A DNA stretch of 53,751 nt. It comes from a virus. Taxonomy: Duplodnaviria > Heunggongvirae > Uroviricota > Caudoviricetes. The notes under the pieces were generated by a model that saw only the letters and a list, made by a program, of their open reading frames with translations, did no database searches and was not told where the DNA came from. This document shows positions 2,443 through 32,407 of the stretch, in pieces. The position numbers and the translations under genes are program-made. The stretch is from positions 1 to 53,751 of IMG/VR virus record IMGVR_UViG_2698536392_000015; one strand, 5' to 3'. How positions within the stretch are numbered: the first letter of the stretch is position 1; every line of letters starts with the position of its first letter.

Positions 2443-3005
2443 TATCGCGTCCTCAACAATGAATTTTGTGATGCGGTGCCTGGTGCCTCCAGGTGACGTT
2501 AACCAGTTAACAATTAACGCCGGATACAGAGAATCCACCCATAACACTGTTTTTGGTTTTAACTGTTCCGCGTGCGCTGAGCCGCATTCACCGCATCACA
2601 AAATTCACTTTAAAAAGGGCGGCAGAGCAGCCACGGAGTAAAACTGATACCGCCAAACGTCACCAGAAAATTGATAACAGAGGGCGTTGCAGCGGGGTTG
2701 TCACTTAAGCGTATGGTCAGCCTGACAACCCGGTGTCCTCAAGGGGAAGGAATAACCCCGCCATACTTACCGCCGCGCCATTTCGCGGATTGCCACAACC
2801 AGAAGCGCACGGTCGAAGAAATTTAACGACAAGACTTATATGCAAAGGGATCTCGCCGTGCGCTTTCGTGTTATGCCCTGACTTTTCAGGGAAATATCCT
2901 TTCAGTAAACTGTCAGTACCGGATTCTTATCCGTGTCCGGCGCACGACCACACGTGACAGCGTGTTGGTCTCCATTTTTAACCCAGAACCTCAATGGAGG
3001 ATAAA

Positions 3006-10799: not shown

Positions 10800-11145
10800 T
10801 AACACTTCCTTAATTTTCCCTTAACAATTTAGGGTGCTAAACTTTTTTGCGCAGTTTACATAAAAAAATAGTGCGTACGCAAAAACTATCTAACATGATG
10901 AGCTTTAACCGGGAAATTTGTATATGTTGTGAGCATAAAGTTGGCTGAGAAATCTAAAACGGGTAGAATGACTGCGGGTGCTTGAGGCTATCTGTCTCAG
11001 GCATGAACACCAAAAGGCAGATAGAGAAAAGCCCCAGTTAACATTACGCGTCCGGCAAGACGCTTAACATTAATCTGAGGCCATATCTATGCTCTACACA
11101 CGTAGGTTAGCCTCTTACGTGCCGAAAGGCAAGGAGAAGCAGGCT

Positions 11146-11301
11146 ATGAAGCAGCAAAAGGCGATGTTAATCGCCCTGATCGTCATCTGTTTAACCGTCA
11201 TAGTGACGGCACTGGTAACGAGGAAAGACCTCTGCGAGGTACGAATCCGAACCGGCCAGACGGAGGTCGCTGTCTTCACAGCTTACGAACCTGAGGAGTA
11301 A
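11146..11301 (+). CDS. hokD: Hok-family membrane toxin
   Basis: Protein MKQQKAMLIALIVICLTVIVTALVTRKDLCEVRIRTGQTEVAVFTAYEPEE matches HokD/RelF as I recall it; AAGGAG RBS; upstream in-frame extension is mok-like. Confidence 0.85.
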   Translation: MKQQKAMLIALIVICLTVIVTALVTRKDLCEVRIRTGQTEVAVFTAYEPEE

Positions 11302-23946: not shown

Positions 23947-24335
23947 TGAATAATGCCTTACCGGCCCTGATTGCCGGGGCGTGCATGGCGGCGCTGGGGA
24001 TTATCGCTGTACTGGTTGCCGCGATATGGGGAATGCACCAGAAGACACAGCGCCTTGAAGACAATAATCAGGTGCTTGTGCGTGAGCGGGATGAGGCGCG
24101 TCAGGTGCTGGCAAATCAGCAGCACACCCTGCAACTCATTTCACAAATCAGTGAGGCGGCCACGAATGAAAAGCAACAGAACATTCAGCACAGCGAGGAG
24201 CAGCAGAGCGTTGTCCGCCGGTCGCTGGCAGCAGTGCCTGCGGCCTCTGTCCCTGTTCCTGATGATGTGGCTGACCGGGTGCGCCGGGCCGTCTGTGAAA
24301 TACGTGCCTGTGAAGCCGGTGCCGATCCCCGCTGA
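23947..24335 (+). CDS. Putative i-spanin (Rz-like); start uncertain
   Basis: TM segment ALPALIAGACMAALGIIAVLVAAIWG followed by Q/R-rich coiled-coil-like region; track ORF 23814..24335. Confidence 0.4.
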
Positions 24336-27599: not shown

Positions 27600-29188
27600 T
27601 GGGACGCATAATTGATCTTGACGGAAAACCTTTCTCCTTTGACCCGGAGATGCAGAGTGCCGTGCTGGATATTCCGCAGATTGCCAGCCGTTATATTGAA
27701 CATCCGGCCTCGGGTATCACCCCGAACCGGGCGGCGCAGTGCCTTCGCGGGGATGAACGTGGCGATCTGATTGCCCAGTCCGATCTGGCGGCTGACATTG
27801 AAGAAAAGGATACCCACCTTTTTGCAGAGCTGGGCAAGCGACGTCTTGCCATTCAGGGCGTGCCCTGGAGTATTGAGCCGCCACCGAACGCCAGCGCGAA
27901 TGAGAAAAAGGACGCGGAAATGCTCGACGAATATCTGCATTCCGCCGACTGGTTTGATGCCATGCTGTTTGACGCCACGGATGCCATCCTGAAGGGCTAT
28001 TCCTGCATGGAGATTGAGCACGGGATGCTCGGTAAAATGCACATCATCCGCGCCATCCGCTGGCGTGACAGCGGGCATTTCTGCCTTAACCCGGATGATT
28101 TGAGCGAACTGCGGCTGCGTGACGGCAGCCATGCCGGGGTGGCGTTTCAGCCCTTTGGCTGGATAGTGCATCAGTCACGTTCACGCACCGGTTACGGCGG
28201 CGCAACAGGGCTTGTCAGAACGCTTATCTGGCCGTTCATTTTCAAAAACTATTCCGTGCGCGATCTGGCTGAATTTCTGGAGGTGTACGGCCTGCCGATG
28301 AAGGTCGGTAAATACCCCTCCGGGGCAACACCGGAGCAGAAAAGCGCCCTGATGCGGGCGGTGATGGATATCGGGCGACGTACAGGCGGGATCATCCCGG
28401 CCGGGATGTCGCTGGAGTTTCAGGCGGCCGCGAACGGTCAGGCCGATCCGTTTGAAACCATGATTTCGTGGGGGGAGCGTTCCATCTCCAAAGCTATCCT
28501 CGGCGGCACGCTGACCACGGAAGCCGGAGACAAGGGCGCGCGCTCGCTGGGTGAAGTGCATAACGAGGTGCGCCGGGAAATCAGGGATTCTGATTTACGT
28601 CAGCTGGCCGCCACGCTGAACCGCGATCTGGTGTATCCGCTGTATGCCCTGAACACCGCCCACGCCATAGATATCCGTCGCCTGCCGCGTATCTGTTTCC
28701 AGACAAAAGAACCGGGGGATATCACCAAAATCACCAGTGCGGTGATGCAGCTCAGTACGGGGATGGATATTCCTGATCCCTGGGTACGGGACCAGACCGG
28801 TATTCCACAGCCTGCCCCCGGTGAAGCCATCTTCCGTGTCCGTCAGAGTGGCAATGAACCTGCTCAGACAGACAAAGAGATGCCACCGGAAAAACAGGAA
28901 AAGACAGAGCAGACGGCGCTGTCAGCCCGACTGCCGGAAGCGAAAAGCAGCCCCCGTGATGAACTGGACGATATGGGGGATGCGGTGCCTGCCCGCCGGT
29001 TACAGGACGCTATCGACCCGCTGCTGGAGCCGGTCATTGATGCCATCAGAACGCGGGGGCTGGCGGATGCGCTGGCAGACCTGCCTGCCCTTTACCGTGA
29101 AATGGATGATTCCCGCCTGATGACGCTGCTCAGTGATGCCATGTTTGCTGCGGAAATGAAGGGGATGATGGATGGCACAGGGGATTGA
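27590..29188 (+). CDS. Portal protein (Mu gp29-like)
   Basis: 532 aa following terminase; size and order as in Mu-like phages. Confidence 0.8.
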   Translation: MLVVGRIIDLDGKPFSFDPEMQSAVLDIPQIASRYIEHPASGITPNRAAQCLRGDERGDLIAQSDLAADIEEKDTHLFAELGKRRLAIQGVPWSIEPPPNASANEKKDAEMLDEYLHSADWFDAMLFDATDAILKGYSCMEIEHGMLGKMHIIRAIRWRDSGHFCLNPDDLSELRLRDGSHAGVAFQPFGWIVHQSRSRTGYGGATGLVRTLIWPFIFKNYSVRDLAEFLEVYGLPMKVGKYPSGATPEQKSALMRAVMDIGRRTGGIIPAGMSLEFQAAANGQADPFETMISWGERSISKAILGGTLTTEAGDKGARSLGEVHNEVRREIRDSDLRQLAATLNRDLVYPLYALNTAHAIDIRRLPRICFQTKEPGDITKITSAVMQLSTGMDIPDPWVRDQTGIPQPAPGEAIFRVRQSGNEPAQTDKEMPPEKQEKTEQTALSARLPEAKSSPRDELDDMGDAVPARRLQDAIDPLLEPVIDAIRTRGLADALADLPALYREMDDSRLMTLLSDAMFAAEMKGMMDGTGD

Positions 29189-30503
29189 TTTAGGTTATGC
29201 CGCCACCCTTCCCTCAAAAGAGGCGGTGGCATACTTCCGCGCCAAAGGGGCGCGTATCAGCTGGAACTGGTTCGAAACAAACGCAGATGTTCATGCCCGA
29301 TCGTTCACGGCGGCAAAAGCGGCACGCCTGGACGTACTGACCACACTACAGGCGGAAGTGCAACGGGCCATTGATGAGGGGATTTCACAGAAAGCATTTA
29401 TCCGCACACTGACACCCCGCCTGCAAAAGCTGGGATGGTGGGGGAAGCAGATTGTGGTGGACAGAGCCGGTAACGCAGAAGAAGTACAGCTGGGCAGTCC
29501 CCGCCGTCTGGCGCTGATTTACAACGTGAACACCCGCGTGGCTTACAATGCCGGGCGTTACACGCAGATGATGAACAACACGGACACGCATCCGTTCTGG
29601 CAGTATGTGGCGGTCATGGACAGCCGTACCCGCCCGTCGCATTCCGCCCTTAACGGTCTGGTATTCCGCTATGATGATCCGTTCTGGAAAACACACTACC
29701 CACCCAATGGCTGGAACTGCCGCTGCCGTGTGCGGCCATTGTCTCAGGCCCGTCTGGATGCAATGGGGTTATCCGTTTCATCCGGTGAGGATCATCTCTC
29801 CACCCGCAATGTTGAGGCTGGCGTGGATAAACAGACCGGAGAAGTCAGAGAAATGCCGGTGACCACATATTCAGATGGCACCAGAACCATGACACCGGAT
29901 GTGGGCTGGTCATATAACCCCGGTTCGGCGGCGTTCGGCACAGACCAGGCGCTGATCCGTAAACTGATCGAGGTGAAAAGCCCGGCGTTACGGGAAATGG
30001 TGGTTCAGGAGATGAACAACAGCCCGGAGCGGCAGCTGGCGTTCCGCATCTGGGCAAAAAACATCATGAAAACCCGGCGAGGCGGTAACGATATCCGCAC
30101 GCTGGGCTTTATGACCGAAAGTATTGCGCAGGCGGTGGAAAGCCGGACAGGAACGCCACCGGCCCGCCTGCTGGCGATGAGCGGTAAAAATGTGCTCCAT
30201 GCGGACAGCATGAAACATCAGAATGACGGTATCGCCCTGACGCCGGAGGATTTCGGGCGATTACCGGCAATGCTGGCAACGCCAAAAGCGGTACTGTGGG
30301 ATAAACGCCACAACAATCTGATGTATATCGTGGAAAGTAAGGATGGCAGTGTGCAGATTGCCGTTAATGCGCCGTACAGCCTGAAGCGTCAGCCGGATAA
30401 ACTGGATGTGATTGTGAATGCTTACCGGGTTATCAATATGGATAAGCTGAAATCGGATATCCGGGGCGGAATGCTTGAGGTACTGGAAGGCGATATTGAT
30501 TAA
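29172..30503 (+). CDS. Head morphogenesis protein (Mu F-like)
   Basis: 443 aa after portal; conserved order. Confidence 0.75.
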   Translation: MAQGIDLGYAATLPSKEAVAYFRAKGARISWNWFETNADVHARSFTAAKAARLDVLTTLQAEVQRAIDEGISQKAFIRTLTPRLQKLGWWGKQIVVDRAGNAEEVQLGSPRRLALIYNVNTRVAYNAGRYTQMMNNTDTHPFWQYVAVMDSRTRPSHSALNGLVFRYDDPFWKTHYPPNGWNCRCRVRPLSQARLDAMGLSVSSGEDHLSTRNVEAGVDKQTGEVREMPVTTYSDGTRTMTPDVGWSYNPGSAAFGTDQALIRKLIEVKSPALREMVVQEMNNSPERQLAFRIWAKNIMKTRRGGNDIRTLGFMTESIAQAVESRTGTPPARLLAMSGKNVLHADSMKHQNDGIALTPEDFGRLPAMLATPKAVLWDKRHNNLMYIVESKDGSVQIAVNAPYSLKRQPDKLDVIVNAYRVINMDKLKSDIRGGMLEVLEGDID

Positions 30504-30624
30504 CGGTCAGTGGCGGGGGTCGAACCCGCATACATGATCCACCCGGAGGCAGGCACCGACTTTACCAGTTAAGCGTACACTGACCGCCTGTTTATTTTAT
30601 ATTCATCCTTTATGCGGAGGCAAT

Positions 30625-31098
30625 ATGTCATCCATTGATGCCGCTGTCGTTGTTGACGTTACGCGTCTCCAGCGGGTCTTTGCCCGGCTTCAGTTTGTGG
30701 GTGGCGGGAAAGACCTGGCCCGCAGTGTGGCGTCCAGCCTTCTGTCATCCTCAGAAATGGCGTTTGAACAGGAAAAAGAGCCGGACGGCGAACGCTGGCA
30801 TGACTGGTCAGATCCTTACCGCAAGTGGCGTACCCGTAAGGGATACATGCCCGGCAAAATCCTGACGCTGAACGGCGATCTGGCCCGACGCCTGACCACG
30901 GATTATGGCGATACCTGGGCGCTGATTGGATCAAATGAGCCTTATGCGGCCATTCATCAGTGGGGTGGCCTGCCAGGTATGCCGCCTGGACCGGCGGCCA
31001 TTGGTGCACGTCCGTATATGGGTTTTGATCAGGTGGCAGAGCAGGAGATCATGGACGAAATCAGAAAACGCTTTAAAAAGGCCACAGAAACACCTTAA
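30625..31098 (+). CDS. Virion morphogenesis protein (Mu G-like)
   Basis: 157 aa; position between F-like and I-like genes. Confidence 0.7.
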   Translation: MSSIDAAVVVDVTRLQRVFARLQFVGGGKDLARSVASSLLSSSEMAFEQEKEPDGERWHDWSDPYRKWRTRKGYMPGKILTLNGDLARRLTTDYGDTWALIGSNEPYAAIHQWGGLPGMPPGPAAIGARPYMGFDQVAEQEIMDEIRKRFKKATETP

Positions 31099-31273
31099 TT
31101 GTTTAAGGTATGCAAATGCATTACCTTACCCCCTTCAGGCGCGTGTCGTGATTTTCTAACCTGTATTTAACGGGCTTTAAAATCTGCGTGAAGCGCCTTT
31201 GCATTTTTCCCTGAAAATACTTCCTGAAATCCCGCAAAACCCGCCCTGAAAATTCCCGGCTTATGCTGCCGGT

Positions 31274-32407
31274 ATGAAGACAGAAAATCACCCAAAAGAC
31301 GCAAATCGCCCCTCTGGTTTAGCCGTGCTTTCAGCTTCGCTGACTGCATCCGGCGACGGATGGTGTCAGTTACTGCCAGCAGGCAGGGTAAAGGCCCGTG
31401 ACGGTCGCCCGGAAAAACCGGCTGAAGGCTGGCTGATTAACGAATCCGCCTGTAACCGGATGAAAGCCGGGCTTTCCGCCCTGAATCAGCCGTTACTGAT
31501 TGATTATGACCATCACTCCATGAATGCGCAGAAAAACGGATTCAAGGCCATTGCCGCAGGTTGGGTTAAGCCGGAAAACATCGAATGGCGTGAGGGGCAG
31601 GGGATTTTCATTAAACCTGAATGGACGCCGCAGGCCCAAAAACATATTGATGACCGTGAATATGCCTATCTGTCTGCGTATATGCATTATTTCGCTGACA
31701 CCGGGGAACCCTACCTGTTGCGCATGGCTTCCCTGACGAATGATCCAGGTATTACGGGTATGAACCCTGTCGCAGCACTCAGTGCTGACGATCTCTATGT
31801 AGTTTCCCCTTCTCAGGAGCAACACCCCATGAATGAGCAATTACGCCAGTTGCTGACGGCGCTCGGTCTGACCGTGGCTGACGGTGACGAATTTACGCCG
31901 GAGCTGGGCACGGCGGCGCTGTCTGCCCTCACCGGGATCAAAACCCGTGCGGATGCACACGACAACCTGAAAACACAGGTCGCCAGTCTGTCGGCAGAGC
32001 TGGAAACCGCAAAAGGCACACCGGCTGGCGGCAGTATTGATCTGACGAAATACGTGCCCGTTGAAACGTATAACGCCCTGCGTACCGAATACGTTGCACT
32101 GTCGGCGCAGCACGGCAGCACCACGCTGGAGCAGGTGCTGGACAAGGCTGAATCCGAAGGGCGCATCTTCAAAAGCGAACGCGGCTATCTGGAACAACTG
32201 GGTGGGCAGATTGGTGTTGCTGCACTTTCTGCACAGCTTGACGCCCGACAGCCGGTTGCGGCCCTGACCGGCCTTCAAACCGACACCGTGACCGTGCCGG
32301 ATAAAAAGACTGCCACCGCTGTGCTGTCGGCTGAAGATATCGCGGCCGCCAAACTGCTGGGTAAAACCGAAGCCGAGTTCCTGAAAATGAAAGAGGAAAT
32401 GCAATAA
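31274..32407 (+). CDS. Head protease/scaffold (Mu I-like)
   Basis: 377 aa directly upstream of the major head gene. Confidence 0.75.
   Translation: MKTENHPKDANRPSGLAVLSASLTASGDGWCQLLPAGRVKARDGRPEKPAEGWLINESACNRMKAGLSALNQPLLIDYDHHSMNAQKNGFKAIAAGWVKPENIEWREGQGIFIKPEWTPQAQKHIDDREYAYLSAYMHYFADTGEPYLLRMASLTNDPGITGMNPVAALSADDLYVVSPSQEQHPMNEQLRQLLTALGLTVADGDEFTPELGTAALSALTGIKTRADAHDNLKTQVASLSAELETAKGTPAGGSIDLTKYVPVETYNALRTEYVALSAQHGSTTLEQVLDKAESEGRIFKSERGYLEQLGGQIGVAALSAQLDARQPVAALTGLQTDTVTVPDKKTATAVLSAEDIAAAKLLGKTEAEFLKMKEEMQ

Follow-up and report, generated by a model that had tools for sequence, protein, structure and literature searches.

Phage tRNAs are currently seen as decoders that offset codon bias or tRNA-cleaving defences. 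tRNAs are typified by an unpaired discriminator nucleotide (N73) and a 3' CCA, which is encoded in all E. coli tRNA genes, while a G-1:C73 pair is a hallmark of bacterial tRNA-His. Phages also encode small stable RNAs that resemble tRNAs or depend on RNase P for maturation but do not decode, such as RNAs C and D of T4, the C4 RNAs of P1 and P7, and the CI RNA of P4; the C4 and CI RNAs work via exposed complementary loops. The tRNA fold has been put to other uses by design and in nature. In the engineered "tRNA scaffold" of Ponchon and Dardel, the anticodon stem-loop is swapped for a hairpin insert, and in E. coli cellular factors recognise these chimeras, which undergo processing and are protected (PMC3753655). 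YrlA, a Y RNA of bacteria and phages, is a non-decoding mimic of the tRNA D arm, T arm and acceptor on which tRNA enzymes act (PMC4201824). It is encoded beside the Ro60 orthologue rsr, its two termini build the Ro-binding stem and not the acceptor, and it contains the motif GNCGAAN0-1G (PMC4201824).

The window, by which we mean the whole 53,751-nt stretch of DNA that was analysed, is a lambdoid prophage with a Mu-like phage inserted. Two GenBank records with 100% identity to a 701-base query (window 30200-30900) label the stretch as "region of the inserted Bacteriophage Mu-like phage". The 121-nt gap between the F-like and G-like genes, which are both encoded on the plus strand, holds a tRNA-like RNA gene on the minus strand, referred to here as the MuF-G tRNA-like RNA. 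A first-pass annotation made from the letters alone had placed a tRNA-like feature on this strand between F-like and G-like genes, and the Pfam matches of the flanking genes (Phage_Mu_F and MuF_C on one side, Phage_tail_S on the other) bear out that setting. Comparative analysis shows that the gene is conserved and that its product has a tRNA fold with a four-way junction, no anticodon loop and a closed acceptor stem. The features of the locus are as follows.

29172-30503, plus strand: MuF-like minor head protein gene (Pfam Phage_Mu_F 9.6e-30, MuF_C 6e-7), converging on the RNA gene
30504-30586, minus strand: whole tRNA-like RNA gene, extended terminal stem included (Rfam RF00005, family model R1, PGAP tRNA-OTHER)
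30578-30586, minus strand: 5' strand of the terminal stem, C-2, G-1 and G1-G7 (CGGTCAGTG), pairing with 30504-30512
30557-30577, minus strand: U8, A9 and the D arm, with loop AACUGGUA (30570-30563) containing G18 and G19
30534-30556, minus strand: substitute for the anticodon arm, with proximal stem GUG/CAU, distal stem CC..GCC/GGU.GG and tetraloop UCCG (30547-30544), from the MFE fold
30530-30533, minus strand: short variable loop GUAU; (G/U)UAU stands just before the T stem in nearly all members
30513-30529, minus strand: T arm GCGGG / UUCGACC / CCCGC, in which the outer three stem pairs covary (GC/GU, CG/UA, GC/AU)
30504-30512, minus strand: 3' strand of the terminal stem, CACTGAC plus C73 and G74 (CACTGACCG), followed by UUA and not by CCA
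30594-30623, minus strand: predicted sigma-70-type promoter, with -35 TTGCCT (30623-30618), an 18-nt spacer and -10 TAAAAT (30599-30594)
30625-31098, plus strand: Mu G-like virion morphogenesis gene (Pfam Phage_tail_S 1e-33), upstream of the RNA gene on the opposite strand

In the numbering used here, the 7-bp acceptor begins with G30584 (+1), and C30505 takes position 73. On the minus strand, the 9-bp terminal stem joins CGGUCAGUG (30586-30578) to CACUGACCG (30512-30504); this is the inverted repeat that had been proposed as an acceptor-like stem, and both of its halves are present (CGGTCAGTG and CACTGACCG). Within this stem C73 pairs with G-1 and G74 with C-2, so no free N73-CCA end is left. 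The F open reading frame ends at 30503, and the three bases 3' of the RNA are the complement of its stop codon. The D stem consists of the pairs C30575-G30557, G30574-C30558, C30573-G30560, U30572-A30561 and U30571-A30562, with U30559 bulged. The D-loop-like motif of the earlier reading, AACTGGTA, was located at 30570-30563, enclosed by CTT...AAG, and its T arm (GCGGG-TTCGACC-CCCGC) at 30529-30513 on the minus strand. That reading had failed to fold a convincing anticodon arm, and rightly: a 7-nt loop with U33, an anticodon and a purine at position 37 is absent, and a hairpin capped by the UCCG tetraloop takes its place. Compared with shuffled sequence, the minus-strand fold (-35.7 kcal/mol) has z = -2.07 and the plus-strand fold z = -0.88.

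Detection of this RNA by general models was partial. A local Rfam scan matched the tRNA model RF00005 at 30505-30584 with 31.0 bits, against a gathering threshold of 29 (E = 5.9e-5), and the alignment spans the full model (1-71) with the anticodon arm skipped. The first-pass annotation had staked its structured RNA on such a covariance-model search, and the feature stands because the tRNA model scores above threshold. A default whole-window Rfam gathering scan listed sok and DicF only and not this feature, and several family members score under the Rfam tRNA threshold. ARAGORN reported no tRNA in the window and four related loci, and no tmRNA in the window. At E <= 10, the local Rfam scan gave no match except tRNA, with the YrlA and C4 families absent. 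Weak Rfam matches near the site to STnc480, SNORD27, PK-PYVV and DUF3800-III were dismissed as A/T-rich chance hits far under threshold. The F-G region occurs in 230 of 5,426 complete RefSeq E. coli genomes, with many O157:H7 and other STEC among the carriers. RefSeq/PGAP marks "tRNA-OTHER" at the identical bases and strand in many E. coli copies, identical copies included, and annotates nothing at some copies that are 99% identical. A blastn search across the 5,426 genomes returned family members only and no host tRNA. We found no separate family for this RNA in Rfam 15 and no description of it in the open-access literature. The MuF-G tRNA-like RNA appears to be a previously undescribed family, which software had spotted under the "tRNA-OTHER" label without interpretation.

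Relatives were gathered by pattern scans of viral, metagenomic and genome collections, which yielded about 50 distinct sequences, and 45 of these, representing diverse members, were placed in alignment A2. The nucleotides of the universal tRNA core and elbow are invariant in all 45 sequences: U8, A9, A14, A15, G18, G19, A21, G53, U54, U55, C56, G57, A58 and C61. Helix cells are 94-95% paired, and 13 pairs show double changes. The covariation score was 0.58 compared with 0.19 for column shuffles, none of 500 of which reached the observed value, although relatedness among the sequences inflates such shuffle statistics; sliding the partners by 1-3 columns lowered the score to 0.07-0.20. RNAalifold on its own recovered an 8-bp terminal stem and the T arm. 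Counted on the minus strand, the helices contain 37 G·U pairs and 3 A·C pairs, and the functional molecule is therefore taken to be the minus-strand RNA, not the late mRNA and not the DNA.

All seven acceptor pairs covary in the family alignment, as do -1:73 and -2:74. The -1:73 pair is formed in 40 of the 45 sequences (GC in 18, AU in 11, UA in 6, GU in 4 and UG in 1) and the -2:74 pair in 31. Because -1:73 covaries, it is the pairing that is selected and not the identity of the bases. In the D stem, column pair 15-31 covaries (GC in 15, UG in 15, UA in 6) and column pair 14-32 is CG in 40 of 45. A canonical 4-bp D stem (columns 15-30) was considered and set aside, being paired in only 24 of 45; the 5-bp stem with its bulge gives the better fit. 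The region between the D arm and the T arm always forms one hairpin, whose proximal 3-4 pairs covary between subtypes (G·U/G-C/A-U, U-A/C-G and G-C/C-G/U·G) and whose distal part varies freely in length and sequence. Its cap is a loop of 4 nt in 26 of 45 members, of 3 nt in 10 and of 7 nt in one (L124), and frequent 4-nt caps are C(UUCG)G, UCCG, UCAG and GCAA. No member encodes CCA, and N73 and N74 are base-paired. As judged from this alignment, the missing anticodon loop is a conserved design feature and the family is under purifying selection. A covariance model built from the family (R1) found one copy in the window, at 30502-30588 on the minus strand, with 88.2 bits, a score that is partly circular since the window is in the seed. 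Family members scored 58-88 bits with R1 compared with at most 52 bits for ordinary tRNAs on the same contigs, and the copy in Pasteurella phage Pmp9, which lies outside the seed, scored 68.4 bits.

By descent and fold, then, the RNA is a tRNA derivative that lacks two features by which a tRNA is defined, the anticodon loop and the free N73-CCA end. It shares with canonical tRNA (RF00005) the 7-bp acceptor, the D arm, the T arm and the universal tertiary-contact nucleotides. It differs in having a tetraloop-capped rod, an acceptor lengthened to 8-9 bp through -1:73 and -2:74, a 5-bp bulged D stem and no CCA, and in lying antisense inside a late operon. An eighth acceptor pair is also found in tRNA-His and tRNA-Sec, and G-1:C73 is both the state of the window and the commonest in the family (18 of 45). 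Unlike in those tRNAs, A:U, U:A and G·U also occur at this covarying pair, many members add a ninth pair, and the RNA lacks a GUG or UCA anticodon, a CCA and a long variable arm. The tRNA-like domain of tmRNA is likewise a tRNA mimic without an anticodon, but its end is open and accepts alanine, with G3:U70 and CCA, and tmRNA has an mRNA-like reading frame and pseudoknots; the window RNA has C3-G70 at the corresponding pair, and the ARAGORN tmRNA search was negative. In contrast to C4 and CI, the MuF-G RNA has no exposed complementary loops and no Rfam C4 match, and no target longer than 12 nt was found in the window. The closest functional analogy, as far as stability is concerned, is the tRNA scaffold, which also keeps the acceptor stem and the T and D arms and puts a hairpin in place of the anticodon arm; the scaffold is artificial and carries a chosen payload, whereas the "payload" of the MuF-G RNA is often a short tetraloop hairpin and its acceptor is closed. 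From YrlA it differs in that its ends form the acceptor, its neighbours are MuF and G, and its topology is set apart by the published description of YrlA (PMC4201824).

The RNA gene appears to be its own transcription unit, with a promoter, a start and a 3' end that are all predicted. The predicted start, at about 30587-30589, coincides with the base of the terminal stem, and the -35 hexamer shares nucleotides with the complement of the G ribosome-binding site. The promoter is the sole promoter-like site within 29900-30800, although taken alone it is not significant. Among 49 distinct stand-alone copies, 34 have a -10 hexamer (at least 5 of 6 positions matching) that ends 7-14 nt upstream of +1, compared with 0-1 of 49 at other offsets and a shuffle mean of 1.7, and 32 of these 34 also have a -35 hexamer at 16-18 nt. 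The position of the promoter is kept while the -10 hexamers vary (TAAAAT, TATACT, TATAAT, TATATT, TATAGT). In the 3' trailers of the F-G loci, which are antisense to F, we found neither a conserved terminator nor a conserved structure, and these trailers otherwise resemble plain coding sequence. The 3' end is therefore presumed to arise by trimming back to the stem. A terminator-like hairpin at 30217-30193 was seen in the window type only. Intrinsic terminators lie about 50 nt downstream of the copies L124, L139 and L153, which are found in non-Mu contexts.

In approximately 60 loci the location and direction of the gene are unchanged: it lies downstream of the G start and directly against the F stop codon, antisense to both genes, and this arrangement is kept even where the F and G proteins are only 32-49% and 29-47% identical, respectively, to those of the window. 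Copies were found in E. coli, in Pasteurella phage Pmp9 (where the gene is unannotated), in two Alishewanella species, in a GC-rich gammaproteobacterial MAG from cattle jejunum, and in human-gut and other metagenomes. An exact-pattern scan of species-representative genomes returned three loci only, and the taxonomic breadth is therefore probably underestimated. Phage Mu lacks the RNA gene and has no room for it, because its F and G genes overlap by 4 nt. A filter-free search also found none in Shewanella MuM16-1, Pseudomonas VW-6B, Alteromonadaceae B23 and four other Mu-like contigs. From this pattern of presence and absence, we conclude that a single clade of Mu-like phages of Gammaproteobacteria carries it as an accessory gene, which is passed on together with the head module.

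Among E. coli prophages with 95-100% identity over F and G, a single block of about 400 nt is only 55-78% identical. The block takes in the 3'-terminal ~245 nt of F, the RNA gene together with the promoter, and ~40 nt at the start of G. The enterobacterial subtypes are A (G10, GUCGGUGC...AUCAUGUAU), to which the window belongs, B-short, B-long and the L016 type. The RNA subtype co-segregates with the ~20 C-terminal residues of F, even on backbones in which the rest of F differs by about 25%; since only 0-60 nt separate the F tail from the RNA, simple linkage may account for this. RNA units were also found outside the head module, at the end of an 8.4-kb, 12-gene integrative satellite-like element, where three of them form a tandem array, one each of B-short, B-long and A, co-oriented with the genes of the element. 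It encodes an integrase, ash and icd-like proteins, DUF4222, a RepA-type helicase, SSB, PerC and Mor, the last being 47% identical to the Mor of the window. The insertion site of the element lies within mdtP in one strain and beside tRNA-Ile in another, and metagenomic versions carry two or three units. The satellite units are about 86% identical to the prophage copy, with differences in the acceptor and distal stems. Searches of the satellite proteins against Pfam and PADLOC returned no known defence family, and a 298-aa protein beside the integrase was unmatched.

Taken together, these observations make it rather probable, in our judgement, that the locus is a minus-strand gene for an independently transcribed RNA of about 83 nt, which would act in trans as a non-decoding tRNA mimic, a natural "tRNA scaffold". 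Because the anticodon loop is gone and the acceptor is closed without CCA, decoding is excluded and aminoacylation is unlikely. Host RNA polymerase with sigma-70 would initiate at the base of the terminal stem, and the tRNA shape would let the host tRNA machinery fold, trim, stabilise and probably modify the product. The closed acceptor and the absent anticodon would keep the RNA from aminoacylation and translation, and in trans it could serve as a tRNA mimic that binds a protein which reads the tRNA body. Three options had been offered by the first-pass annotation, a degenerate tRNA, a tRNA-like structure or another structured RNA. The RF00005 match and the covariation across the family uphold the tRNA-like structure, while the conserved, covarying stems and the promoter speak against a degenerate tRNA in the sense of a decaying pseudogene.

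The main alternative is a cis-antisense regulator, an RNA that pairs with the F-G late mRNA, either that of its own phage or that of a superinfecting or helper phage belonging to the same subtype, and uses the tRNA shape only as a stabilising scaffold. It ranks first among the alternatives because the antisense orientation is strictly conserved, the gene being antisense to the late operon in all of the ~60 F-G loci; the subtype cassettes moreover extend into the 3' end of F on one side and the first part of G on the other, and a satellite with one unit per enterobacterial subtype would suit subtype-specific interference. We nevertheless hold it to be unlikely. No loop is free to start pairing, since the D and T loops are mutually engaged and the third is a UNCG-type tetraloop, and the complementary region is non-coding spacer, with more than 25 nt between it and the G ribosome-binding site downstream. 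The satellite units are only ~86% identical to the prophage copy and differ from it in the acceptor and distal stems, the copies in the satellite, L124 and L139 have no antisense partner, and the longest trans match in the window (12 nt) is at chance level. Co-segregation of the F tail and the RNA subtype raises a different prospect, that of a protein-bound RNA of the head module, with the co-inherited C-terminal tail or MuF_C of F, which is both a minor head protein and a DNA pilot, recognising the subtype-specific part and the RNA being packaged or controlling F. The composition of the exchanged block (F C-terminus, RNA and promoter) and the strict conservation of place within the head-gene cluster would fit. 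Adjacency suffices to explain the co-segregation, however, and the F tail is acidic and hydrophobic, which is atypical for RNA binding; Mu and other Mu-like phages build heads without the RNA, and the satellite carries the RNAs but no F gene. We regard this reading as quite improbable.

The remaining explanations are disfavoured. A decaying pseudogene, the functionless relic of a phage tRNA, would account for the missing anticodon loop, the negative ARAGORN result and a PGAP call of tRNA-OTHER only, and there are U·U stem mismatches in L147, L162 and L172 and one copy interrupted by an IS element. Decay is highly improbable for a gene whose invariant core and covarying stems persist from E. 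coli to Pasteurella and Alishewanella beside proteins of 30-50% identity, whose stable tetraloop caps and closed acceptor recur throughout the family, whose promoter is conserved, and whose unit is tripled in a 12-gene satellite. The position in the F-G spacer of the late operon, together with a 9-bp stem that is followed on the plus strand by the T-rich run CCTGTTTATTTTATATT, could instead suggest a plus-strand or DNA element such as a terminator, an attenuator, an RNA-processing or translational-coupling site, or a recombination or attachment site. Very little credence can be given to this, as the 37 G·U pairs of the minus strand turn into A·C mismatches when read on the plus strand and only 3 do so the other way, and the plus-strand fold is unremarkable (z as given above). 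The T-rich run is the -10 region and is not T-rich in L119 and L157, the TTCGA T loop and the GG of the D loop read properly on the minus strand only, the satellite arrays run co-oriented with their genes, and Mu-like phages transpose and need no att site. A tRNA fragment left as an att duplicate was also rejected, as both halves are present, the site is in the middle of the late operon of a transposable phage, and there is no identical host tRNA in the 5,426 E. coli genomes. We give next to no credence to a genuine decoding tRNA whose anticodon arm is unusual or interrupted. PGAP labels one satellite unit tRNA-Tyr, and the distant member L124 has a 7-nt loop, but the "GUA" behind that label sits in a 4-nt GUAC loop on a 6-bp stem, and the call was made because this tetraloop contains GUA. 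A 7-nt loop is missing in 44 of 45 members, and the free variation of the distal stem, the paired N73 and N74 and the lack of an encoded CCA are likewise out of keeping with decoding.

If the RNA is a trans-acting tRNA mimic, the likeliest setting for it is conflict, whether phage-host, phage-phage or satellite-helper, and the basis for this is the behaviour of the locus only. It is an accessory locus, its cassettes are swapped between near-identical prophages, a satellite holds all three subtypes, and the gene faces away from the late operon like a "moron" expressed in the lysogen. No C-terminal toxin domain that would suggest the RNA as an immunity factor was found in MuF, which by Pfam carries Phage_Mu_F and MuF_C only, and no tRNA-related enzymes were found among the early and middle genes of the prophage. 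A more specific proposal, which we offer tentatively and consider rather unlikely as it stands, is that the RNAs are subtype-specific effectors in conflicts among mobile elements. Each Mu-like phage would hold one subtype with a matching MuF C-terminal tail, and the RNA would bind a tRNA-recognising immune or competitor protein, or MuF, with which it could possibly travel along; satellites would gather one unit of each subtype and so have a mimic of broad spectrum with which to exploit or block the helpers. If this were true, it would be a natural tRNA-scaffold RNA that serves as an anti-defence or interference molecule.

The MuF-G family represents another use of the tRNA fold by phages, in which the whole tRNA body is kept while the anticodon loop and the free CCA end are dropped. 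The family is common in pathogenic E. coli, where the inconsistent "tRNA-OTHER" label inflates or confuses tRNA counts and conceals a candidate regulatory or anti-defence RNA. The RNA is small and easily deleted and expressed, and the variation of its cassettes together with the satellite arrays leads to testable hypotheses on phage-host and satellite-helper conflict.

One relative of the tRNA-like RNA is carried by an isolated phage, Pasteurella phage Pmp9 (OR544140), where it occupies the interval between the MuF-like minor head gene F and the virion morphogenesis gene G. In the Pmp9 copy, the cap is of the GCAA type and the T loop has the sequence UUCAACU; the record leaves this copy unannotated:

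L181 1354-1439, minus strand: family member in phage Pmp9

In a prophage of E. coli OkiPb01711 (L074 3001-3033), the tRNA-like gene is interrupted by an IS3/IS30 insertion after its first 33 nt. The copy in Alishewanella aestuarii (L075 4457-4526) has neighbours among which neither F nor G is recognisable. A putative CRISPR array (L075 4828-6723) lies about 300 nt from this copy, and is suspected because a motif recurs every ~20 residues in the ORF translations.

Two features lie near the RNA gene in the Mu-like phage:

window 30193-30217, minus strand: terminator-like hairpin with T run, within F, about 290 nt beyond the 3' end of the RNA gene
window 31099-31273: gap of 175 nt separating G from protease gene I

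The hairpin had no counterpart at the equivalent position in other family loci, and its occurrence on the minus strand within F is probably due to chance. In its counterpart of the gap between G and I, phage Mu has a gyrase cut site annotated, along with the late promoter PI and a terminator. The protease/scaffold gene I itself holds a second mosaic block (window ~31264-31851; L001 2565-3152), in which prophages ~98% identical elsewhere share 43-68% identity.

The Mu-like phage was inserted into a Stx-phage-like prophage, according to the annotation of LC727881 and LC727895. A whole-window Rfam scan identified two further RNAs, both within lambdoid sequence:

window 2617-2668, minus strand: DicF sRNA (75 bits)
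window 10976-11151, plus strand: sok antitoxin RNA (117 bits)

Shorter relatives were found beside ordinary tRNA genes, on contigs that include a phage contig of ~110 kb:

L118 1917-1982: shorter relative; others in L120, L135, and L166

These four have a normal D stem of 4 bp and a middle of 18 nt without an anticodon loop. About 800 nt upstream of the L118 copy is an ORF whose predicted N-terminus seems to resemble a Thg1-type tRNA-His guanylyltransferase.

Tandem copies were found in an integrative satellite-like element of 8.4 kb. One strain carries it within mdtP, and the second next to tRNA-Ile:

L078 16646-24642: satellite-like element, E. coli STEC17-183
L178 2087-10081: satellite-like element, STEC2018-607

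Its genes encode an integrase, a 298-aa protein with no match in Pfam and PADLOC scans, HTH, ash, two icd-like, and DUF4222 proteins, an AAA_25 helicase, SSB, PerC, and Mor. Iteron-like GTGAAA repeats are present at L078 ~24190-24265. Three tandem tRNA-like units form the end of the element.
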